From contig JAITAV010000024.1 in assembly GCA_031283895.1 (NCBI GenBank), positions 10,980 to 74,979 of the forward strand: 64,000 nucleotides of DNA. The letters run 5' to 3'. The notes under the pieces are model-generated. The model worked only from the letters and a program-made list of their open reading frames with translations, was not told the origin of the DNA and did no database searches. Origin of the DNA: Puniceicoccales bacterium (GTDB lineage: Bacteria > Verrucomicrobiota > Verrucomicrobiia > Opitutales > UBA9783). Of the stretch, positions 5,590 through 51,612 are shown piece by piece; positions within the stretch are counted from its first letter, which is position 1; each line of letters opens with the position of its first letter. Both the position numbers and the translations under genes were made by a program.

Positions 5590-6791
5590 CTAGAGTTCAG
5601 CCTTTCTTAAAATTTGCAGGACTTTTAAAATATGAAGTAAGTAAAAAATTATCTGAACGCAAGTTAATAACGTCAAGAATGTTATAAAAGTCAGTGACAT
5701 CATCTTCTGAACTACAAACACAAAAAATAAACCTACAAAAAAGCAAAAATGCCAGTTACAAAAAAATCTATTTTCCGAATACAGAATAGGGATTTGTTTG
5801 AAAGACGAAGACACAAAATAGAAAAAACCGCCAACAGATAAGATACGTAATGAGTTTCTATCTATACTCCATTTTGCATCAATTAAATGATGGCAAATTA
5901 GGTCAGAGAAAAGAGCAATTAATGCAAAACCAACAAATCCAACAACAAAAATACACAAAAACAGCTTTTTTTGAAAAGAGAATACTAGACGTTTCAATTG
6001 TAATCTTTCTCCTACTTCTTGAAAGATAACATCGCTTATCTTGTTAGCAAGAGCAGAAATAGGATAGTTTACAATCCTTGTTAGCAAACCAAATAATCCA
6101 ACATAATGAAAATTAAAGCAAAACGGCAGTAATAAAATTGGAAACTGTTGCCTTAATTGATTGAAAAAACAACCCACATAAATGTTCCATTGCCGAATTC
6201 CATCATTTTTAATTATGCTACCCATTTCGTGCAAGCTGGGGACAGTTCTCAAAGAGAATAACCAATATCCAAAGCTAATAAAACATGGAATAATTAGGCT
6301 AGTAATATATCCTATAATAAGGCCATGTTGATGCTGCAAAACTAGCGCTGCAATTGGAAAACAAACGCCTTGAAAAATTTGAAGATACGCACTAAGCTTA
6401 TAATCTCCTTTTTTGTTATTATAAATAAAAAATGCTTCAGAGGAAAAAAGAAAAAAAGAAAAGAAAAGAAAGGAATGTAGTAATATAATTTATATTGAAT
6501 GGGTAAAAATGTATACACACATACAAGCAAAATTAAACTTAAAAAAAAAGAACAAACGAATGATGCCAATAGCAAATCGTTTGCCTTTTTTACTGAGCAT
6601 TTAGGAATTATCCACTCTATACGTAGTCCTAATATTACACAAAATAATTGACTTATACTCATAATAAAATAAAAAGAACCAAATAAGGCAGGAGGGTATT
6701 TTTTTGTTAAAAAAGGTATTAATATTACACCAGTTAATTGAGAAATCCATAAAGATATACTTATTAATGATAATTTTCGTATGAACATCAT
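5590..6791 (-). pseudogene. wzx: Wzx-type (MOP superfamily) flippase interrupted by a frameshift
   Basis: ORFs 6342..6791 (N-terminal, MMFIRKLSLISISLWISQLTGVILIPFLTKKY) and 5590..6339 together give ~400 aa of polytopic protein. The downstream frame is open back to 6490 and overlaps the upstream frame within a T-rich tract (plus-strand A6 6444-6449, A7 6451-6457). Confidence 0.55.
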
Positions 6792-7309
6792 ATCATTTGG
6801 GGTTTTTATATATCTTTTTTGTGAAATGTCTCGATTTTTTTGTCATCGAGGATTTGTGGTCAAGGTTGGTGTTATTATCAATATATACATACAATTTTCC
6901 ATACAAGCCTATTATTTGTATGGACTTTTTTAATTTTGCTTTTGTTGTCGTATTATGAATTATAGGAAGTAAGAAGCAATTATGATAAGTGTAATTATTT
7001 ATATTATTTGTCTATGTATTTTACTTATATGGCTGTTTTATTTATCGACAAAAATTGGATTTGGCTTTATTTTAAAAAGCATAATTGTTTTTGTGAGCAT
7101 TTATATGTTTTTTGTTTGGTATTTTTGTAGCCTTATTAGAAATTTTTATTGCTTTACGTAAGAGGTGTTAGTTATGGATAAAGGAATATTATATCCTATG
7201 TGTTTCCAATTATCTAATGGTCTCATCATTAGTATATTAAACTCTATGATAAAAGGTGGCTTAGGGATCTCGCTATTCCTACTTTTTATTATATACTGTT
7301 GCGAAAAAA

Positions 7310-8017
7310 ATGTTAATTATTGAATTTTGTGGAGGAACAAGTGTTGGTAAAACAACGCTTATCAAAGAATTAAACTTGCAATCAAAGCGTGTCATTACAG
7401 CATACAATTACATTTTTCAGTGGTTAAAAATACGCCGTACGAAATGGACTTACATATTTATTTTACATCCATTTTTATATTTTCATTTTTTAAGATTATG
7501 TATCCGTAAAAGGTATTTTTTTGCATTTTTTTTTTCATATTTTTAAGAAGCCAAAGTATCCATTTATAATTAAATTGAAACTTTGCAATAATCTCATAAG
7601 AACTTTCGGTACTGCCTTTTTTTGAATGGGCACAACACTTACCAAAACTATGACATAATCATAATAGATGAAGGGCCGATACAAATAATTAATAGTATGG
7701 TTACTACATTTCATGATAAAGTAAATATAAATTACCCATTAAACAAACAATTACTTTCAAAATTGCCCCATGAATTATTTTTCAAAATTATTATTATATA
7801 TGACAGTGACAAAAATGTAGCTATTAGATCGTTAAAAAGGGGTGACGCTGCCTTGGGTTGTAAACATTTATCTTATCGAGAATGGTTGTGCTTCGCAAAA
7901 AATAATAGAAAAAACTTTGAATATTTAGAATCTTTATTAAATGACAAAATTACATGTGTTATTCGCTCACAAAATAAATTAAATATTCTAAGGGAAAAAT
8001 TAAATATTAATATCTAA
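7310..8017 (+). pseudogene. P-loop NTPase/kinase-like gene broken by two homopolymer frameshifts
   Basis: Walker A GGTSVGKTT (7310 ORF) and Walker B IIIIDEGP (7622 ORF) lie in the same frame. The intervening segment is open only in another frame. The junctions fall at T10 (7526-7535) and T7 (7617-7623); T9 and T8 would restore one ~235-aa ORF. Confidence 0.55.
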
Positions 8018-10196: not shown

Positions 10197-11354
10197 TTAA
10201 AAATTTTGTAAAGTTTTTTTGAGTTGATTTAAAATATAGGCCGCCCCTTGGTGAGCGGATTGGCTCCAATTAAAAACATGTTGCTCCCGTAAAGTACAGA
10301 GGCGCTGACGCCATTCCTCTCGCCGTATTAATAAGTCATCCAGTAAATATGGAAGTGTGGAACACTGTGCAAGCGGTACCTCGATACCAATTTCTCTGCG
10401 CAGAGCAATTTCCATAGGTTCTATTTGCAAATCTTGCCAGCGAGAATTGTGTTTTTTAAGTGGTGTTTCCATGAATATAACCGGACGTTCGGTTCCAAAA
10501 GCGTATTCGAATGCAATACCGGAACGATCTGTAATGAGCACATCCGCATCGTATAAGTTTTCTTCCGAAAGAAGCCGATCTTCCCAAATAAAATGGGCCA
10601 AAGATGCAATTTTATGTTGCAAATGGGATGCTTGCCGTGGACACCGTTTCAAAAACTCTGGATGTGGACGCAAGACAATCGTATAATTCAAAGGTGCCAA
10701 AACTTCTATGAGTAATTCAATGCCATTTTTAAGCAAACTCGCTACACCCCAAGTAGGTGCAATTAGAATTTTTCTGACCTCTTTATCGTGTTTACAAGGT
10801 CTTTGCCGAAAAGCTTGATATACAACATCCATACGTGGATAGCCTATAGGTAACAACTTTTTGTGAGGCAAATGATACAAATTTTCTCGCTTTTGGATTT
10901 CCCGTACATGGTGTGGACCAACACAGAAGATTGTATCGTAAGCGTCAAATGCGTGTTCATTATACTGAAGGTGTGTGCTCGAAAACGCATGAAATAGATA
11001 TATGTATTCTTGCGTATGCGGTGACTTTTTTAAATGATAAGTGTTTAGGTCGGGCATTGTAAAAACAAAAATCTGCGCATCCATTTTATCAAATACCGAC
11101 TTCAAAAAATGCTTGAAAAAAAATGGATACAAGCGCTCATGATGTCGCAACAATAGAGGATCATTCGGATCCGATGTAATATATGAACATGAAATATCTG
11201 AGTCTTGTAAAATTTCTCCGATGAAAGGCGCAAACGTTTGGAAGTAAATATCACGCTCGGAGTAAAAAACCAGACTGCGATGCCGACGATATTCTTTGCT
11301 GAAAAAAAGTTTGTAATTTTTATACTCTGTTTGCAGATTAGAAAACCAAGACAT
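10197..11354 (-). CDS. TagB/TagF-family CDP-alcohol (glycerophospho)transferase-like protein
   Basis: KILIAPTWG, VLRPHPEF, DADVLITDRSGIAFEYAFGTERPVIFM match the CDP-glycerol glycerophosphotransferase pattern. Start at ATG 11354, or 11438 as in the ORF track. Confidence 0.7.
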   Translation of the reverse strand: MSWFSNLQTEYKNYKLFFSKEYRRHRSLVFYSERDIYFQTFAPFIGEILQDSDISCSYITSDPNDPLLLRHHERLYPFFFKHFLKSVFDKMDAQIFVFTMPDLNTYHLKKSPHTQEYIYLFHAFSSTHLQYNEHAFDAYDTIFCVGPHHVREIQKRENLYHLPHKKLLPIGYPRMDVVYQAFRQRPCKHDKEVRKILIAPTWGVASLLKNGIELLIEVLAPLNYTIVLRPHPEFLKRCPRQASHLQHKIASLAHFIWEDRLLSEENLYDADVLITDRSGIAFEYAFGTERPVIFMETPLKKHNSRWQDLQIEPMEIALRREIGIEVPLAQCSTLPYLLDDLLIRREEWRQRLCTLREQHVFNWSQSAHQGAAYILNQLKKTLQNF

Positions 11355-14300
11355 GGTCAATATGGGCGTATTTAAGCAACAAGTAATTATTTTAGGTGCC
11401 GGTAAGTCAAAACAATTTTTCGAAAATCCATCCATCATTCATGTGGATCAAGAAACATGCACCTTAGATTGGCTACTCAATGCATTCGATAAAACAATCA
11501 CACGTTATTTGTTTGTGGGAGGATACAAGATGGATGAAATCACCCATCGCTATCCCCATTTGCACTTTGTCGTAAATCCCATTTGGAAACATTCAGGGTG
11601 CATAGAGTCATTGCATTTATCAGATTTTGACCCACAATTACCCGCTTTCGTCTGTTACGGCGATATTTTAGTGCGTCCCGAATTGGTTAAGGATATCTTG
11701 CAAGCGGCTCGGCAAGATGATGTTGATGTTGTATTTGCACTCGATTCGGATCCTAAAACAATTGCAACAAAACCTGATTGCGAATACATCCATTGCAATT
11801 TTAATGGAAATTCTACCGATGGTAAGCAAAACTTTATTGGACTTATTTATTTGAAGCCGAATGTATTGCAGCAATTAAAGAATAATTTTCCATTGGGTTC
11901 GACTCACCAGCGTTTATCGGGGTTATTACCCTATTTTTTACAAAATAAATTTAACATCCAAACGGTGGAAGCACATGGATTATGGGTGGAAGTTCAACAG
12001 CCGGGTGACGTAGCTCGTTTTATTCTCACCACCAAGGCCCAAACTTTACATACCTTAAAACATCGCATTACCAAGGCAAAGATAGCGGAACAAGTACACT
12101 TTTCGGTTCAAGAGTGGCAAAACAATCGACAAACTATACTCGATATTTTAAAACAAACTTTTGGAAAAAAATTGCTCGTTGTCCGCAGTAGTTCGTTGCA
12201 AGAAGACGGGTTTTCAAAAGCCAATGCCGGAAGGTTTACAAGTGTTATTGACGTCCAAATGCGCGATGCCGATTTAATGCAAGCTGTGGAAGCCGTTATT
12301 GCTTCTTACGGTCAAGCGATGACCCAAGAAGATCAAGTATTGGTGCAACCTATGTTGCAAAATGTAGACGCTTGCGGTGTTGTCTTTACGCGTACGTTGA
12401 ACTATGGGGCTCCTTATTACATCGTAAATTACGACATAGAAAATACGACAGCCGTCACAAGCGGCATCAGCGATAGCGATTGTATTTTTTATCACTGGAA
12501 AACAGCACCTATCCCTAAAAATGCCCCTTATTTCTTCAAAGATTTATACGAAGCCATTCAAGAGATTGAATTTTTGACACAATTTGATGCTTTAGACATT
12601 GAATTTGCGATCACAAAGACGCACGAATTGTACATCTTTCAAGTACGTCCGCTCGCTGCACAACATTTACGTGAAATTGATGACAGCCGATTGCAAGAAC
12701 AATTGCAACAAGCATCCAAGCGATTTGAAGACATGCAGCAGGCGCACCCTGGGATAAGTGGCAATCGAACCATCTTTGGGATCATGCCCGATTGGAATCC
12801 TGCAGAAATTGTTGGTATTAAACCGAGAACATTGGCCATAACCCTTTATCAACAATTGATCACTCATGAAATTTGGGCGCAACAACGACATGAATTTGGA
12901 TATAAAGATGTACGTCCATATCCACTTATCGTATGTTTTTCCGGACACCCATACGTGGATGTCCGTGCCAGTATTCATTCTTTTTTGCCTGCAAACTTAA
13001 AACAATCTACTACAGAAAAACTCGTTCACTATTACCTGAATCGCCTTTCGACACATCCCGAATGGCATGACAAACTCGAATTTATGGTCATGCCCACATG
13101 CTACACGTTCGACTTTGAAGACCGTTGGCACACGGCTTTAACACGCGAAGCCGGTTTATCGGAAGACGAATTTGAATCTTACAAGCAAAATTTGTTGCAT
13201 TTAACGCAGGATGCCTTTCAAAAATGTACGGAACAATACAAGGCAACCGGGTCCATAGATGAACAATTTGAAGCTATTCAACGGGTACCGTTGTCGGACT
13301 TAGATCGTCTGTACGTATTATTCGAAACGTGTAAACGAGGAACGTTAAATTTTTCCCACTTGGCACGCTGCGGTTTTATCGCCAGTGCTTTTTTAAATTC
13401 CTCTTTGGCCAAAAACATGCTTACGGAGGCCGAAAAAGAAGCGCTTTTGGGCGACATTCAAACCATTACGGGAACATTTTTTGAAGAGACAAAAAAAGTG
13501 CTTAATGGTCAAGTTTCCCGTACCCATTTCATTTGTAAATATGGACATCTAAGACCGGGTACGTACGATATTACGTCTCCAGCGTACAAAGTGGATCCCG
13601 ATAAATACTTATTTGGGCACTCGGGACAACAGGTTGCGACGGTGATAACTCCTAAAAACACATTCCATAATCCAACCTTCGAAAAGATTTTATCGGACAC
13701 GCTGTCGGTTTCGTTGGATACCTTTAAACATTTTTTACAACAGGCAATTGCGGGTCGCGAATATTCCAAATTTGTTTTCACAAGGTACGTTTCTGAAATC
13801 CTGGATATCCTCGAACGTTTAGGACAGAGGTACGGGCTTTCTGCAGACGATGTTTCTTACCTTCCCATTACAACGTGGTTGGACTTGCGCAACGGTATTG
13901 CAAGTGACGGTAAAACAAAATGGCTTTTAAGGACACAAATTGAGTATCAAAAAGAGTATCATCAAGTTGCCCAGTGTATCGAATTGCCACCGTTAATACT
14001 GCAACAAAGTGACTTTTTCTCATTCTTTGTGCCTAAAACTTTACCCAATTTCATTGGCAACCAGTGCGTCGAAGCACCCCTTGTTTACTTAAAAAATTCA
14101 AACGAAACCAACGGTGATAGCCTACGTCATAAAATCGTACTGATTGAAAAGGCAGATCCCGGATTCGATTGGATATTTAATTACGAGATTGCCGGACTCA
14201 TCACGGTGTACGGAGGACCCAATTCGCACATGGCGATTCGTTCGGCCGAATTTAAATTGCCGGCCAGCATTGGCATTGGTAATACACTTTTTAACACGTT

Positions 14301-14361
14301 AAAAACGGCCCAATGGGTACAACTGGATTGCAACATTCATACCTTGAAAGTTGTACGCTAA
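11353..14361 (+). CDS. fusion protein: nucleotidyltransferase-like domain + PPDK_N ATP-grasp + swivelling phosphohistidine domain (Cj1418-like amide kinase candidate)
   Basis: N-terminus VIILGAGKSKQF... (GT-A/NTP-transferase-like). Middle LLVVRSSSLQEDGFSKANAGRFTSV and GVVFTRTLNYGAPYYIVNYD (PEP/pyruvate-binding). C-terminus GLITVYGGPNSHMAIRSAEFKLPASIG (PEP-utilizer mobile domain). Confidence 0.75.
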   Translation: MVNMGVFKQQVIILGAGKSKQFFENPSIIHVDQETCTLDWLLNAFDKTITRYLFVGGYKMDEITHRYPHLHFVVNPIWKHSGCIESLHLSDFDPQLPAFVCYGDILVRPELVKDILQAARQDDVDVVFALDSDPKTIATKPDCEYIHCNFNGNSTDGKQNFIGLIYLKPNVLQQLKNNFPLGSTHQRLSGLLPYFLQNKFNIQTVEAHGLWVEVQQPGDVARFILTTKAQTLHTLKHRITKAKIAEQVHFSVQEWQNNRQTILDILKQTFGKKLLVVRSSSLQEDGFSKANAGRFTSVIDVQMRDADLMQAVEAVIASYGQAMTQEDQVLVQPMLQNVDACGVVFTRTLNYGAPYYIVNYDIENTTAVTSGISDSDCIFYHWKTAPIPKNAPYFFKDLYEAIQEIEFLTQFDALDIEFAITKTHELYIFQVRPLAAQHLREIDDSRLQEQLQQASKRFEDMQQAHPGISGNRTIFGIMPDWNPAEIVGIKPRTLAITLYQQLITHEIWAQQRHEFGYKDVRPYPLIVCFSGHPYVDVRASIHSFLPANLKQSTTEKLVHYYLNRLSTHPEWHDKLEFMVMPTCYTFDFEDRWHTALTREAGLSEDEFESYKQNLLHLTQDAFQKCTEQYKATGSIDEQFEAIQRVPLSDLDRLYVLFETCKRGTLNFSHLARCGFIASAFLNSSLAKNMLTEAEKEALLGDIQTITGTFFEETKKVLNGQVSRTHFICKYGHLRPGTYDITSPAYKVDPDKYLFGHSGQQVATVITPKNTFHNPTFEKILSDTLSVSLDTFKHFLQQAIAGREYSKFVFTRYVSEILDILERLGQRYGLSADDVSYLPITTWLDLRNGIASDGKTKWLLRTQIEYQKEYHQVAQCIELPPLILQQSDFFSFFVPKTLPNFIGNQCVEAPLVYLKNSNETNGDSLRHKIVLIEKADPGFDWIFNYEIAGLITVYGGPNSHMAIRSAEFKLPASIGIGNTLFNTLKTAQWVQLDCNIHTLKVVR

Positions 14362-14960
14362 TGACAACAAAAATAGGAATTACACAACGTGTGGAAACGG
14401 TAGAAGCATACGCTGAAGTGCGCGATGCTTTGGATCAGCGTTGGTACCGTCTATTTGCACCACTCAGTACCGTATTGATACCGATTCCAAACGCGATGGA
14501 AAAAATGAATGTTTATTTCCGCGAGTGTAATTTTGACGGTTTTGTATTAACTGGAGGCAATCACCATCCTCTGCGCGATCGTTGCGAGCAGGATATCCTT
14601 AACTACGCCGTAAAACAACAAAAACCCGTGTTAGGCGTGTGTCACGGTATGCAATTTATGTCAAAATACTTCAAGGCGCCATTAGTACTTATAGACAATC
14701 ACGTAGGCGAACATACCATCACGATTCAGGCTAACCGTTGGGGATTTCCGGAAGGTATATGCACGGTTAACTCATATCATCGCCACGCCCTCTCATGCAT
14801 ACCCACTAACTTTACGGGCTTTGCATTTGACAAAGACGGTTACTGCGAAGCCATGCAACATAACACACTTCCGTTTGTAACCTGCATGTGGCATCCGGAA
14901 CGCGATACGTCGCTTCCAACCTGGTTTCATATCTTCCTAAAAAAATTGTTCCAAGCATGA
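14361..14960 (+). CDS. class I glutamine amidotransferase / peptidase C26-like hydrolase
   Basis: TAATG coupling to the upstream gene. Nucleophile elbow PVLGVCHGMQF and MWHPERD (Cys-His-Glu triad). Confidence 0.8.
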   Translation: MTTKIGITQRVETVEAYAEVRDALDQRWYRLFAPLSTVLIPIPNAMEKMNVYFRECNFDGFVLTGGNHHPLRDRCEQDILNYAVKQQKPVLGVCHGMQFMSKYFKAPLVLIDNHVGEHTITIQANRWGFPEGICTVNSYHRHALSCIPTNFTGFAFDKDGYCEAMQHNTLPFVTCMWHPERDTSLPTWFHIFLKKLFQA

Positions 14961-15694
14961 CATCTCCTCAAGTTTTTATCTTATGTGCCGGTGAAGGGCG
15001 GCGACTGCGGCCCCTCACCGAAGACAAACCTAAATGCTTGGTTCCTTATAGGAATAAACCGATTTTGCAGTACCAATTAGAAATTATTAAAACACTGCAA
15101 TTAAACGATGTTACCCTTATTGGAGGACATCGGCATGAAGTTTTGCCCAATACGTACGCCAAAATTGTCAATGCACGCTACGCAGAAACGAATATGCTGC
15201 ACAGTTTGTTCTGTGCAGAAAATAGGATGGATGCCTCGCGCGATATGATCGTTGCTTACGGCGACATCATTTATCACGCATCTGTTTTAAAGACATTGCT
15301 GGAAGCACACGATCCCATTGCAATTGTAACGGATGTAGATTGGGAACGCTACTGGCAAAATCGCATGGAAGATCCTTTACAAGATGCAGAAACGTTTCGT
15401 TGGGATCCCCATACACGTCGTATTTTCGAATTGGGAAGAAAACCTAAATTGCAATCCGACATTCAGGGCCAGTACATCGGCTTATTTAAAATCGACGCAT
15501 CGTACGTGACAACTTTTAAAACTTTCCATCATCATTTTTGTCAAACACATGCGAATGCAGAAAAAGCCTACATGACCGATTTTTTACAGTATCTCATCGA
15601 TCAGCAACAACCTGCATTCGGTATTCCCATCCACAACCGATGGGCGGAATTCGATACCGTACAAGATCTGCAAGTGACAGTTGATTTTTTATGA
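14957..15694 (+). CDS. sugar/phospho-substrate nucleotidyltransferase (cytidylyltransferase-like)
   Basis: ATGA coupling. FILCAGEGRRLRPLTEDKPKCLV is the GxGxRL NTP-transferase signature. Confidence 0.8.
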   Translation: MTSPQVFILCAGEGRRLRPLTEDKPKCLVPYRNKPILQYQLEIIKTLQLNDVTLIGGHRHEVLPNTYAKIVNARYAETNMLHSLFCAENRMDASRDMIVAYGDIIYHASVLKTLLEAHDPIAIVTDVDWERYWQNRMEDPLQDAETFRWDPHTRRIFELGRKPKLQSDIQGQYIGLFKIDASYVTTFKTFHHHFCQTHANAEKAYMTDFLQYLIDQQQPAFGIPIHNRWAEFDTVQDLQVTVDFL

Positions 15695-44016: not shown

Positions 44017-45015
44017 CTAACCGCATAGAGGAAACTGCACGTTGCACAAAATTCTTTCCAAACAAGGATTCAAAATAGCATTGTCCGTTGCAATAATGTA
44101 ACGTTGTCCCAGGTTGCTATGATCTTGCTCCACGATACAATCGGCTAATTTTTTCTGTGTGCTTTCTCTGACTTTGTTGGCGTTGAACAATAAGACAACT
44201 CCCTGGCAAAATCGTTGTAGTAAGCCTTTGCGGCGAATGATGGTGCCTCCATAAATAAGTTGCTCGTAGCCAAATAAAATTGCTTCAAGAATTTCTTGAG
44301 GAATTTCGTCACAACGGACAATAAGGCATTTGCCAAACATATTCGAATGAGCCACAAAACGCGCAATGCTTTGTGCAAAATCAAATGTTGTATTTTTCAA
44401 TAACAAAGAAGAGGCTATCGGCTTCATTTGTTCCAAAAAACGCATTTGTATTGAATTTAACGATTGAACTCTGCAAATGGTTTTGTCGACTACGCAATCC
44501 CGAAATTCTTTGGGGACTTCCGCCAACCAATCCAGACTTTTATTCCAGACATCTTCCGAATAAACACCTTCCAAAGAATAGTGCGACTCCATTTGAAAAA
44601 TTTTTGTTTCGATATGCAACGAAGTGGCCAACAGTAGCCAACAGTCCAGCAAACGATCACAGGCAGAAGGTGGTAACAAAAATGAAACCTCACGGTTACT
44701 TGTTTTGAAAAGGTGTTGATATTTATTTAAAGCCTCCTTTAAGTTATAAAAAATATCTTTGTAGATACTAATATTAGTTATGGGTAAAATGTGACGATCG
44801 ACTTGAATAGACGGCCAATGCGTTCGAATATACTGTTCTGTTAAAAATGCATTTAACTTCCAAAGCTGCAAACCAAATAAAATAACTTGGTCAAAAGGTT
44901 CCTCTTTAAGCAGCCGCACCAGCGGCCCAATCTTGTCCTGCTGGCCTGGACTGTAAGGATCCTGGAAAGAGGGAATCGCTAACACTATTCGGCAACCGGC
45001 ATTCTTTTTTGACAT
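44017..45015 (-). CDS. degenerate sigma54-activator-type AAA+ domain protein with unassigned N-terminal domain
   Basis: The C-terminal half aligns by eye to the bEBP core. HSNMFGKCLIVRCDEIPQEILEAILFGYE corresponds to HS.R...PF..vNC.AIP..L.ESELFGHE, and GVVLLFNAN to GGTLFLDEI. Walker A, Walker B DE and GAFTGA are all replaced, and no HTH follows. Confidence 0.45.
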   Translation of the reverse strand: MSKKNAGCRIVLAIPSFQDPYSPGQQDKIGPLVRLLKEEPFDQVILFGLQLWKLNAFLTEQYIRTHWPSIQVDRHILPITNISIYKDIFYNLKEALNKYQHLFKTSNREVSFLLPPSACDRLLDCWLLLATSLHIETKIFQMESHYSLEGVYSEDVWNKSLDWLAEVPKEFRDCVVDKTICRVQSLNSIQMRFLEQMKPIASSLLLKNTTFDFAQSIARFVAHSNMFGKCLIVRCDEIPQEILEAILFGYEQLIYGGTIIRRKGLLQRFCQGVVLLFNANKVRESTQKKLADCIVEQDHSNLGQRYIIATDNAILNPCLERILCNVQFPLCG

Positions 45016-48874: not shown

Positions 48875-48950
<76 letters not shown>

Positions 48951-49682: not shown

Positions 49683-50054
<372 letters not shown>

Positions 50055-50061
<7 letters not shown>

Positions 50062-50086
50062 AGAAAACTTGAGTTTTCTGAATAGG
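50055..50086. terminator. perfect 14-bp hairpin between rnpB and the convergent gene
   Basis: cctattcagaaaac-ttga-gttttctgaatagg. The 5' arm overlaps the 3' strand of rnpB P1. Followed by ttta. Confidence 0.55.
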
Positions 50087-50100
50087 TTTATGCAAGTAGC

Positions 50101-50652
50101 TTACAGCAGAAGACAGGCCGCACTACGCTTCACGTTTGTTTTATTTTGTTCAAGTAACGAATTGATCGCCTGTACGTAAAGTAATGCGTCAAATTTCTTT
50201 AAAAAATTATAATCTTCTTCATCAATACACGATTTCATTATTTCTGCAATCGTGTATTGAGATACATATAAATAATTTAAGACACAATGCAAAGCCTTTA
50301 CGGTTTCCCACTTCACTTTGGATGTCAAGGTCACGTTCTTGCTTTCAATATATAAAATCTGGCTCAATATACAACAGCAATCGGCAAAGTCGCGGTCGTT
50401 GTGAAAACATAAGAAATGCATATCGCCTTCAATTTTTTTGCATAATTCCAGTGAAGAGATTTTATCATAATCATCCATCGCTTTGCCACTCGCTTGGTAA
50501 GGTCCATTTTTTAGCAAAACTCTTGCAATTTGGCAAAGACGTTCGAGGTTATTATCCACGATATCGGACAAAGGACCTGCATAACTTAAGTACGGAGAAT
50601 TTAAAATAGATATAAGGGTAAGCAATACGCCCAATATAAAATTTTTATTCAT
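50101..50652 (-). CDS. orphan secreted protein ending in a CaaX box (CLLL)
   Basis: Sec-type signal MNKNFILGVLLTLISILNSPYLSYA. The C-terminus reads ...NVKRSAACLLL-stop (tgt ctt ctg ctg taa, checked on the sequence). Confidence 0.6.
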   Translation of the reverse strand: MNKNFILGVLLTLISILNSPYLSYAGPLSDIVDNNLERLCQIARVLLKNGPYQASGKAMDDYDKISSLELCKKIEGDMHFLCFHNDRDFADCCCILSQILYIESKNVTLTSKVKWETVKALHCVLNYLYVSQYTIAEIMKSCIDEEDYNFLKKFDALLYVQAINSLLEQNKTNVKRSAACLLL

Positions 50653-50727
50653 GTATGTGTGTTTATTTAAATTGCATAAAATTGCAAGAAAAAAAGAATA
50701 AAAGTTTTATTTTAAAAAGTTTAGTTG

Positions 50728-51612
50728 ATGTCGCTTTATATTAATATGAGTGTTTCTGATGTAAGCCATTCTACTTCTTCTAGTGCTGCTACCTCAACTG
50801 AGGTATTGCCACGTTTTATTGTAACCGGGGATTGCCCGACAATACTTGAAGGTCCAAACATCAATAACTACCAATTTCTTTCTCAAGTTAAAATAAGGGA
50901 AGTGGTAAACAGCTTTACCAATAGTTCAAACACGAATGTACGCAATATATGGGAAGCCTGTAAGGAAAAACTTGAAACCCAAGGTTACACAATGGCGTTT
51001 ATTCAAAGTCAATCTTACGCTTTTAAAAGTGAGGATACAATAAGGGCTATGCTTGATGGCAATAATAGAATTTATATTGGCATTCCTTCTACAGAAAGCG
51101 AAGGAAATATTGTAAGATTGGTTTTTAACGGTCAAACCTTGACAACAAGTTCCGATATTGCACCCAACAATATTACAAAAGAAACCCATAAGCTTGCCCA
51201 CGTTGTTTCTTTTCTATCATCAGGGATAGCAAGTTCCCAAGATTGGGATGCACGCAAACAAGACTGGGCCAAATTTTTCAAAGAGTCTCGCATGGAACCT
51301 ATTTATATTGCTTTACAAAATGAAAATCGGTCCATCGACGAGATTCACGACAGCTTTAAAAAACTATTTACCAATACCGAGGAAGCGCGAAATCTTTTGG
51401 GCGTAATTCCTGGTAAAAATGAAGGAGAATACATCGGTGAATTTTATTTTTTCAATGAACATAATAATTATGAACTACTTACTTACCTTGATCATAATGT
51501 AGCTTTAACAGATTGTGACAAAGCTGTTTTAAATGCTATTGCGGTAGGGTTTAGTATTACATTTCAACCTTCTGGCTGTTGTTCTCGGTCTGAGTGTTGC
51601 CTTTTGCTGTAG
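50728..51612 (+). CDS. orphan protein with Ser/Thr-rich N-terminus ending in a CaaX box (CCLLL)
   Basis: The C-terminus reads ...QPSGCCSRSECCLLL-stop (tgt tgc ctt ttg ctg tag). The start could be ATG 50728 or 50746. Confidence 0.6.
   Translation: MSLYINMSVSDVSHSTSSSAATSTEVLPRFIVTGDCPTILEGPNINNYQFLSQVKIREVVNSFTNSSNTNVRNIWEACKEKLETQGYTMAFIQSQSYAFKSEDTIRAMLDGNNRIYIGIPSTESEGNIVRLVFNGQTLTTSSDIAPNNITKETHKLAHVVSFLSSGIASSQDWDARKQDWAKFFKESRMEPIYIALQNENRSIDEIHDSFKKLFTNTEEARNLLGVIPGKNEGEYIGEFYFFNEHNNYELLTYLDHNVALTDCDKAVLNAIAVGFSITFQPSGCCSRSECCLLL

Follow-up and report, generated by a model that had tools for sequence, protein, structure and literature searches.

Two divergent genes with conserved CaaX endings in a Puniceicoccales bacterium: candidates for host-prenylated effectors

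Some bacterial effectors end in a eukaryotic CaaX box, that is, a Cys at the fourth position from the C-terminus (position -4) followed by the residues a1, a2 and X. Host prenylation of such effectors is established for AnkB and Pel of Legionella and for SifA and GtgE of Salmonella (PMC4951486, PMC13081727, PMC13423502). We analyzed a stretch of 64,000 nucleotides from a Puniceicoccales bacterium of the phylum Verrucomicrobiota (assembly GCA_031283895.1, contig JAITAV010000024.1, positions 10,980 to 74,979 of the forward strand). This whole 64-kb stretch, with a GC content of about 39%, is called the window below. It contains two divergent genes, protA and protB, whose products both end in CLLL. 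We propose, with a probability of roughly 0.65, that these products are effectors prenylated by the host and thereby anchored in host membranes.

AnkB and Pel of Legionella pneumophila resemble the products of protA and protB in being bacterial proteins of varied or unknown fold with a eukaryotic CaaX end. They are injected into protozoa or macrophages, farnesylated or geranylgeranylated by the host and anchored in membranes, and the Cys is needed for their localization (PMC4951486, PMC13081727), whereas protA and protB are known from sequence alone. Unlike these two, the Legionella CaaX effectors come from a gammaproteobacterium, use the Dot/Icm type IV system for delivery, lack a Sec signal peptide and do not form a conserved gene pair. 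They have no sequence similarity to protA or protB. Likewise, SifA and GtgE of Salmonella are type III-secreted proteins whose C-terminal CaaX box is geranylgeranylated by geranylgeranyltransferase I (GGTase-I), and SifA is S-acylated on a neighbouring Cys, which recalls the Cys-rich protB tail GCCSRSECCLLL (PMC4951486; PMC13423502). Unlike protA and protB, SifA is similar to WxxxE proteins and guanine nucleotide exchange factors (WxxxE/GEF-like) and GtgE is a Cys protease; both belong to an enterobacterial animal pathogen and have no paired Sec-dependent partner.

The M91 proteins (NleD of Escherichia coli, HopH1 of Pseudomonas and XopG of Xanthomonas) are zinc metalloproteases that act as type III effectors and carry an HExxH motif. 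NleD cleaves host mitogen-activated protein (MAP) kinases (PMC13325838). On the eukaryotic side, the tail of human Rac1 (...KKRKRKCLLL) carries the same tetrapeptide as protA and protB. The prenylated residue of Rac1 is Cys189 (PMC2602895). Unlike Rho-family GTPases, protA and protB have no GTPase domain and no conserved polybasic region. The likeness to Rac1 is confined to the four-residue signal and is therefore mimicry, not homology.

So far, the demonstrated cases of host-prenylation mimicry come mainly from two proteobacterial pathogens, Legionella and Salmonella. The strategy itself is known from Legionella Pel/AnkB and Salmonella SifA, and the present case extends a known principle. What is new here is the Verrucomicrobiota and termite-gut setting, the two protein families, their conserved pairing, the presence of lipidation signals on an NleD-like scaffold, and the unusual combination of a Sec signal peptide with a CaaX box. 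No earlier description came up in a search of the literature on CaaX motifs, type III secretion or effectors in protist endosymbionts or Verrucomicrobia. If our reading is true, this would be the first known host-prenylation mimicry by a verrucomicrobial symbiont, or by any termite-gut protist symbiont.

Conservation of the CaaX boxes and of the gene pair

The elements of the two genes are the following (ORF, open reading frame).

50101-50652, minus strand: protA, ORF of 183 aa, ending ...NVKRSAACLLL*
50578-50652, minus strand: predicted Sec-type signal peptide of protA, MNKNFILGVLLTLISILNSPYLSYA|GPL, by sequence inspection
50389-50403, minus strand: HNDRD motif of protA, which forms the invariant family core; D91-C92, also invariant, come next
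50104-50115, minus strand: CaaX box CLLL of protA (TGT CTT CTG CTG), with the stop codon at 50101-50103
50653-50745, no strand assigned: AT-rich divergent intergenic region between protA and protB, presumed site of a shared promoter region
50746-51612, plus strand: protB, 288 aa from ATG 50746, ending ...SGCCSRSECCLLL*
51187-51201, plus strand: degenerate zinc-binding motif HKLAH of protB (HELxH in the family), with the catalytic Glu changed to Lys beside a short deletion
51379-51402, plus strand: EEARNLLG motif of protB, the second family signature, with an almost invariant G219
51598-51609, plus strand: CaaX box CLLL of protB (TGC CTT TTG CTG), with the stop codon at 51610-51612 and four more Cys before the box (GCCSRSEC)

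The protB product would have 295 aa if the alternative start TTG 50725 were used. The public gene call (P0001; here P denotes proteins and L denotes loci) starts at ATG 50746, which is the more likely start. A scan of the intergenic region for sigma-70 patterns gave no match above chance.

A preliminary description of this DNA had reported both ORFs, divergent and ending in CLLL with differing codons, and they exist as described. It had named as a refuting result a motif that does not exceed chance and is not kept in orthologues, and the counts show the contrary. The background was counted in stop-to-stop frames of at least 150 aa. Within the window, no such frame besides protA and protB has a Cys at -4. 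In the window plus seven related loci, 13 of 136 frames have it, and 12 of these 13 belong to the protA or the protB family. The non-family ORFs of those loci give 1/124, a background of about 1% in this set.

The protA orthologues share 62-79% identity with the window copy, and the distant homologues 21-32%. The Cys stands exactly at -4 in all 12 homologues, including the distant ones. Eight distinct tails were found (CLLL, CLLP, CTIS, CNIS, CVIL, CAIL, CIIF and CVLF), each with I or L at a2. All the orthologues encode CLLL and a stop codon in their DNA, except for one CLLP (L008). An apparent exception, P0009, is a frameshift of 1 nt, and the next frame reads ...DCKTNTCLLL*. Inside the box, the orthologues vary synonymously (TGT/TGC, CTT/CTC, CTG/CTT/TTG). 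The 5-10 residues before it vary in sequence and length, and the linker differs by up to 9 residues. Because of these synonymous changes and this variable linker, selection acts on the CLLL peptide rather than on the DNA.

The protB family comprises 31 cluster representatives, obtained by a profile search of 1.84 billion representative proteins. The orthologues of protB retain CLLL, as SSGGCLLL in L005 and as GCCPHCECCLLL behind a frameshift in L003. In the family, the Cys is exactly at -4 in 14 of the 25 complete C-termini, with a binomial P of about 5e-21 to 6e-18 against a background of 1.2-2%. The boxes are CLLL, CLLV, CVLQ, CIAQ, CNIL, CHLL, CVFV, CQIF, CDVM, CILV, CILC and CIIQ, and a paralogue (L012:32-1171) ends GCCGCNIC. 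Position a2 is I, L or V in 11 of the 13 distinct boxes, and aliphatic in 19 of 21 over both families. Each of the two window proteins has a C-terminal Cys at -4, an aliphatic a2 and a motif conserved beyond chance.

Two unrelated hypothetical ORFs might both end in CLLL by coincidence, given so short a motif and the abundance of Leu at a GC content of ~39%. However, a terminal CLLL is expected at ~1e-5 per protein (an estimate from typical residue frequencies), and here it stands on two adjacent genes. The motif is also kept in orthologues and distant homologues, as is the pairing. Coincidence is effectively refuted.

The two genes had been described as orphans. On the contrary, both have orthologues and distant homologues and form a conserved pair. 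The divergent arrangement is seen in L001, L003, L005, L009, L012, L014 and L015. In L009, L012, L014 and L015, the four distant loci inspected, a protA homologue of 152-172 aa lies divergently upstream of the protB homologue in every case. These loci have a GC content of 33-37% and different flanking genes. Their protA homologues show a Sec-type signal peptide ending ..YA|N, the invariant HNDRD..DC and the Cys at -4, as CTIS, CNIS, CVIL and CAIL. Two more protA homologues, P0043 and L018, end CIIF and CVLF; L018 was the one extra homologue given by a motif-based metagenome scan, which also returned one spurious match (L017).

An identical copy of the pair is found in a second, independent assembly (L001), and protA occurs in every relative examined. 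The window is collinear with L002, L003 and L008 over 48.8-60.5 kb, and the pair therefore sits in a conserved core neighbourhood of the clade. With L009, the window shares the gene order of a phosphoenolpyruvate (PEP)-utilising-domain protein, a class-I glutamine amidotransferase and an NTP_transf_3 nucleotidyltransferase (window 11353-15694; L009:3753-5412). The two genes compared from this trio are 45% and 61% identical. The shared trio therefore makes L009 a relative of the window organism. On these sequence grounds, protA and protB are a conserved, divergently transcribed two-gene module, which may be largely limited to this verrucomicrobial radiation.

Both module genes are frameshifted in L003:9007-10560 and L004, that is, in a metagenome-assembled genome (MAG), Pcl387 from Procryptotermes, and in a separately assembled Logan contig. 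These frameshifts may be true pseudogenisation or a common sequencing error; the CLLL-stop codons are intact beyond the shifts.

In this module, protA is predicted to encode a Cys-rich, all-helical protein. Its DN/DS (ratio of non-synonymous to synonymous substitutions) is 0.13-0.29, therefore it is a real gene under purifying selection. Profile searches found no match for it in Pfam, NCBIfam or PDB sequences. The AlphaFold2 model consists of helices only and has low confidence (pLDDT, the predicted local distance difference test, of 56; the orthologue alignment is shallow). With this model, Foldseek against the PDB gave just generic helical bundles (ferritin, Dps) at E > 0.3, which is not meaningful.

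The predicted signal peptide of protA presents a basic n-region, a hydrophobic h-region and small residues at -3 and -1. Its signal-peptidase site (Y24 and A25) is invariant in the nine aligned homologues. A lipoprotein with a lipobox was considered and rejected: the pattern L-[AS]-[GA]-C does not occur, and the window copy has no Cys where the lipobox would have it. In the same nine-sequence alignment, the residues H84, N85, D86, R87, D88, D91 and C92 are invariant, together with the CaaX Cys C180. Of the many cysteines, exactly C92 and C180 are invariant across the family. The three basic residues before the box make it weakly polybasic and are not kept in the L002 orthologue (EEYKSSNACLLL). 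The analogy with the polybasic tail of Rac1, made in the preliminary description, was dropped.

The Cys at -4 might instead be structural. The protA product would be exported by Sec to the periplasm or out of the cell, C180 would pair with C92 through a disulfide or a metal, and the likeness to a CaaX box would be incidental. The conserved Sec signal peptide, the many cysteines and the invariance of exactly C92 and C180 agree with this explanation. The periplasm is also oxidising and has no prenyltransferase. However, a structural Cys leaves unexplained why the chain always ends three residues past it, despite a linker varying by up to 9 residues, and why a2 is I or L in 8/8 lineages. It also leaves unexplained the similar ending, with Cys at -4 and an aliphatic a2, of the unrelated and signal-peptide-less protB in 14 of 25 relatives. 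We consider a structural role decidedly unlikely as the explanation of these endings.

The protB family and the window copy of protB

Members of the protB family share an almost invariant HELxH, a W and the motif TEEARNLLG; H148, E149 and H152 are each conserved in at least 90% of them. The Pfam family Peptidase_M91 (PF14891) matches 11 of the 31 members over one profile region. The scores of these matching members are 12-25.0 bits (cut-off 25), the best being P0012 (25.0) and P0021 (24.6). By eye, the family and NleD have the same order of motifs: an 'I..I/L...G..LL' helix, HELxH and EEAR..G. In E. coli NleD these read ...IEAALDKIGSTETGRVLLNAI..., HELLH and EEARTVGLG. On the other hand, the spacer between HELxH and EEAR has roughly 60 residues in the protB family and 24 in NleD. 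The protB family also has an extra C-terminal region ending in a CaaX box, whereas E. coli NleD ends ...LHPLL, with no CaaX box.

Direct comparison with E. coli NleD gave an hhalign probability of 1.7%, about 2 bits in hmmsearch and a BLASTP alignment limited to the HELxH stretch. None of these is significant, and we do not claim formal M91 membership for the family. A profile search of the family against PDB sequences gave no significant match. We regard the protB family as a marginal case of an M91-like (NleD-like) zincin family. The preliminary description found no recognisable domain in either protein. This stands for protA; conversely, the protB family has a marginal metalloprotease signature, degraded in the window copy.

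The N-termini of the protB family are of two types, either rich in Ser and Thr, like type III secretion signals, or rich in Cys (MSLCCSKPSCC, MSVFFSCFRGCCPGGCC). The Cys-rich ones would suit S-acylation.

Three members with no CaaX box (P0020, P0023 and P0031) carry an extra C-terminal domain of ~200 aa (...NNNCGVRALL...IHFQALVP). From its motifs alone, we suspect an OTU-type cysteine protease; it has no Pfam match. Another observation concerns L012:1-12083 (ENA ERZ16299754, GC 33%), a dense cluster of candidate effectors. It contains three or four M91-like paralogues, of which one ends GCCGCNIC, one starts MKNLCCCFGCCCSD and one has a signal peptide. The cluster also encodes a Fic-domain protein and two AAA_14/DUF4143 ATPases. 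By eye, a further ORF of the cluster shows an OTU-like signature (GDENCGFYAIL...HWQTYV), for which Pfam gave no match.

The window copy of protB (P0001) has no match in the Pfam and NCBIfam scans. Its orthologues show 47-64% local identity by BLASTP. The AlphaFold2 model is of low confidence (pLDDT 46), again from a shallow orthologue alignment. The protein has no signal peptide, and 11 of its first 25 residues are Ser or Thr. A predicted Sec signal peptide on one protein and a Ser/Thr-rich N-terminus on the other is what had been noted before. The extra Cys residues before the box, on which the preliminary description also drew, recur in several relatives (GCCPHCECCLLL, GCCGCNIC, SCCDVM); on the other hand, they are missing in the L005 orthologue (SSGGCLLL).

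Unlike the M91 proteases, the window protB has no catalytic Glu. It lies below the 25-bit gathering threshold, and its HExxH is not intact. The close orthologues P0002, P0003 and P0004 have HELAH, and P0002, the closest of them, reads YKLAHELAH at the zinc site. The HKLAH of the window copy looks like the product of a four-codon slippage deletion between the near-repeats KLAH and ELAH, which took out the catalytic Glu. With this Glu lost, the window protB is probably catalytically dead as a protease.

L002 and L008 have no protB, the gene is frameshifted in both L003 and L004, and its DN/DS is 0.47. It looks less stable than protA. One may suppose that the whole module of this genome is a decaying relic, with boxes that worked in an ancestor and window copies, protB above all, that are now idle. 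The HKLAH with its small deletion, the losses and frameshifts among relatives and the contrast of DN/DS values (0.47 for protB, 0.13-0.29 for protA) are consistent with such decay. However, both window ORFs are intact, and the copy in the independent assembly L001 is identical. Purifying selection acts on protA, which every relative carries, and synonymous changes leave CLLL as it is. Even the DN/DS of 0.47 still means constraint, and an effector without catalytic activity can still bind its target. A relic module is in our opinion unlikely.

Secretion genes, habitat and host prenylation

The preliminary description recommended looking for secretion-system genes, and they were found in relatives. 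L003 carries SctC (340 bits against TIGR02516, cut-off 238), which adjoins a gene for a CesT-family chaperone and lies 3.5 kb from protA. L008 carries SctV (899 bits against TIGR01399, cut-off 692; above its FlhA score) at 5.3 kb from protA, and also a SicP-like chaperone. The gene content indicates a non-flagellar type III secretion system (T3SS) in at least two close relatives. The synteny of the window with its relatives stops at tRNA-Phe (48875-48950). Past this tRNA, L003 (13010-16333) has SctC and its chaperone, L008 (10376-16834) SctV and its chaperone, L002 nusA/infB and the window valS. This suggests a variable, island-like region beside tRNA-Phe.

All the orthologues with a source name come from 'Puniceicoccales bacterium' MAGs; the rest are metagenome contigs of the Joint Genome Institute (JGI) and Logan read-run assemblies. 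By isolate names and accession range, the related MAGs were traced to the termite-gut data set of Mies et al. 2024 (PMC11257099). The sources traced in this way, which cover the related MAGs with isolate names and not the distant loci, are Cryptotermes cavifrons (Cc175), Cryptotermes dudleyi (Cd354) and Procryptotermes leewardensis (Pcl387). These are lower termites (Kalotermitidae), which harbour gut flagellates. The same paper, which uses the name Opitutales where NCBI has Puniceicoccales, reports reduced-genome Opitutales families restricted to lower termites, regarded as established or putative protist endosymbionts and including the intranuclear Ca. Nucleococcus (PMC11257099); their link to the related MAGs is the shared data set, not a family assignment. 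The bacterium of the window probably lives inside a eukaryotic cell or on its surface, and a lower-termite gut flagellate is the likeliest host.

In the endings described above, the Cys is invariant and always three residues from the chain end, a2 is aliphatic, a1 and X are free and the linker varies. This is the pattern of a CaaX box. To our knowledge, it fits no bacterial signal. We consider host prenylation the best explanation because the pattern is present in two unrelated proteins that travel together, in a lineage with a T3SS and in a habitat rich in protists. The preliminary description had proposed host-membrane-targeted effectors of a eukaryote-associated bacterium. The conserved, above-chance motif, the T3SS genes and the lower-termite guts of relatives agree with that proposal, but no secretion system is present in the window.

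Alternatively, a bacterial machine for sorting, lipidation or processing might read the Cxxx end, for example an intramembrane protease of the CPBP/Rce1 type or a bacterial prenyltransferase, and the proteins would serve at the bacterial envelope or against other bacteria and not in a host. Many bacterial CPBP (CAAX protease-like) proteins have unknown substrates, and one of our two proteins is predicted to be Sec-exported. Some intracellular bacteria even carry protein-prenyltransferase-like domains (bioRxiv 10.1101/2024.11.28.625222). However, no CPBP/Rce1-like or prenyltransferase-type gene adjoins the module in the eight loci examined. NCBIfam, which includes models of the known C-terminal sorting signals, gave no match for either protein. 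Known bacterial sorting signals consist of a transmembrane helix and a basic tail, not of a bare tetrapeptide; both proteins stop three residues past the Cys and have no transmembrane helix, unlike PEP-CTERM, MYXO-CTERM, GlyGly-CTERM or LPXTG-type proteins. The T3SS genes, the M91-like proteins, and the OTU-like ORF and Fic gene of L012 point to eukaryotic targets. A bacterial reader of these endings is very improbable.

Under host prenylation, both products would leave the bacterium. The protB product would probably be exported by the T3SS, because it has a Ser/Thr-rich N-terminus, no signal peptide and an NleD/M91-like family. The protA product would be exported by the Sec pathway and then by an unspecified second step. 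In the host cytosol, a host prenyltransferase would recognise the CaaX box. A Leu at X directs a protein to GGTase-I. This enzyme would act in the CLLL clade, and farnesyltransferase in other lineages, which have S, Q or M at X. The lipidated Cys would anchor the proteins in a host membrane, and the extra upstream Cys of protB may gain palmitate. The ancestral protB may have been a zinc metalloprotease cutting a membrane-proximal host target. The protB of this genome is probably an inactive or decaying copy. Conversely, protA, which is under clear purifying selection, is the conserved working part of the module.

Several results weigh against host prenylation. First, the M91 assignment is marginal: the window protB has no Pfam match, and neither the family profile nor the individual members match E. 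coli NleD significantly. Both structure models (pLDDT 46 and 56) are of low confidence. Second, 11 of the 25 protB-family C-termini have no box, and three of these carry the extra domain ending ...HFQALVP. The protA orthologue of L008 ends CLLP, and a Pro at X makes a poor prenylation substrate. Third, protB is lost in two relatives and frameshifted in one, and the catalytic Glu is gone in the window copy; the protB half of the pair may be decaying. There is no T3SS, type II secretion system (T2SS) secretin or other translocation gene in the 64-kb window. Finally, the conserved, cleavable-looking Sec signal peptide of protA directs the protein to the periplasm and not to a T3SS.

This last point raises a puzzle, namely how a Sec-exported protein could reach a cytosolic host enzyme. 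A T2SS, outer-membrane vesicles or lysis are possible second steps from the periplasm, and such a step would be easiest if the symbiont were free in the cytoplasm or nucleoplasm. Tentatively, and with more doubt than confidence, we suggest that protA represents a new class of effector. It would be Sec-exported and yet lipidated by a cytosolic host prenyltransferase, and it would be inherited with, and sent to the same membrane as, a type III-injected NleD-like protease. If true, this class would imply either that the symbiont lies unenclosed in the cytoplasm or nucleus of the protist, as Ca. Nucleococcus does, or that proteins pass from periplasm to host cytosol by a route not yet recognised.

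If host prenylation is true, the device is now found in two undescribed Verrucomicrobiota protein families linked to termite-gut protists and kept over deep divergence. It would be direct molecular evidence that reduced Opitutales interact with the eukaryotic cytosol. With the protB family, the NleD-like effector proteases would extend into a new phylum, in which lipidation signals redirect them to membranes. A Cys at -4 with an aliphatic a2 could serve as a simple sequence marker for effector candidates in uncultured protist symbionts.

Flanking genes and other features of the window

The neighbours of the pair are the following.

49697-50060: RNase P RNA, bacterial class A (227 bits), on one flank of the pair
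50055-50086, no strand assigned: perfect inverted repeat of 15 nt, overlapping the 3' end of the RNase P RNA and 15 nt from the protA stop codon
51632-52330, minus strand: DEDD (DnaQ-like) exonuclease homologue of 232 aa, directly 3' of protB and convergent with it

The hairpin at 50055-50086 is also kept in L003 and is probably a terminator shared by the RNase P RNA and protA. The opposite flank consists of the DEDD-exonuclease-like gene, rpsR and tsaC/sua5. The exonuclease homologue, at 18 bits, is under the Pfam threshold and is present in all the close relatives.

The remaining genes of the window include valS, an H+-pyrophosphatase, ATP synthase, enolase, glycogen synthase and a large polysaccharide-biosynthesis cluster, that is, ordinary housekeeping and polysaccharide genes. 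A search of the window for T3SS genes was negative. The long block of minus-strand genes at 28-40 kb belongs to polysaccharide biosynthesis.

Two minor observations concern other parts of the window. The region 5590-8017, within the polysaccharide cluster, has the lowest GC content of the window (about 28%). There, two adjacent membrane-protein ORFs (5590-6339 and 6342-6791) resemble one split gene and are followed by short ORFs only. On the minus strand, a 332-aa ORF at 44017-45015 shows a partial sigma-54-interaction (AAA+) domain alone (35 bits, profile positions 50-137 of 168). Receiver and DNA-binding domains were not detected in this ORF, which may be a truncated or divergent regulator.

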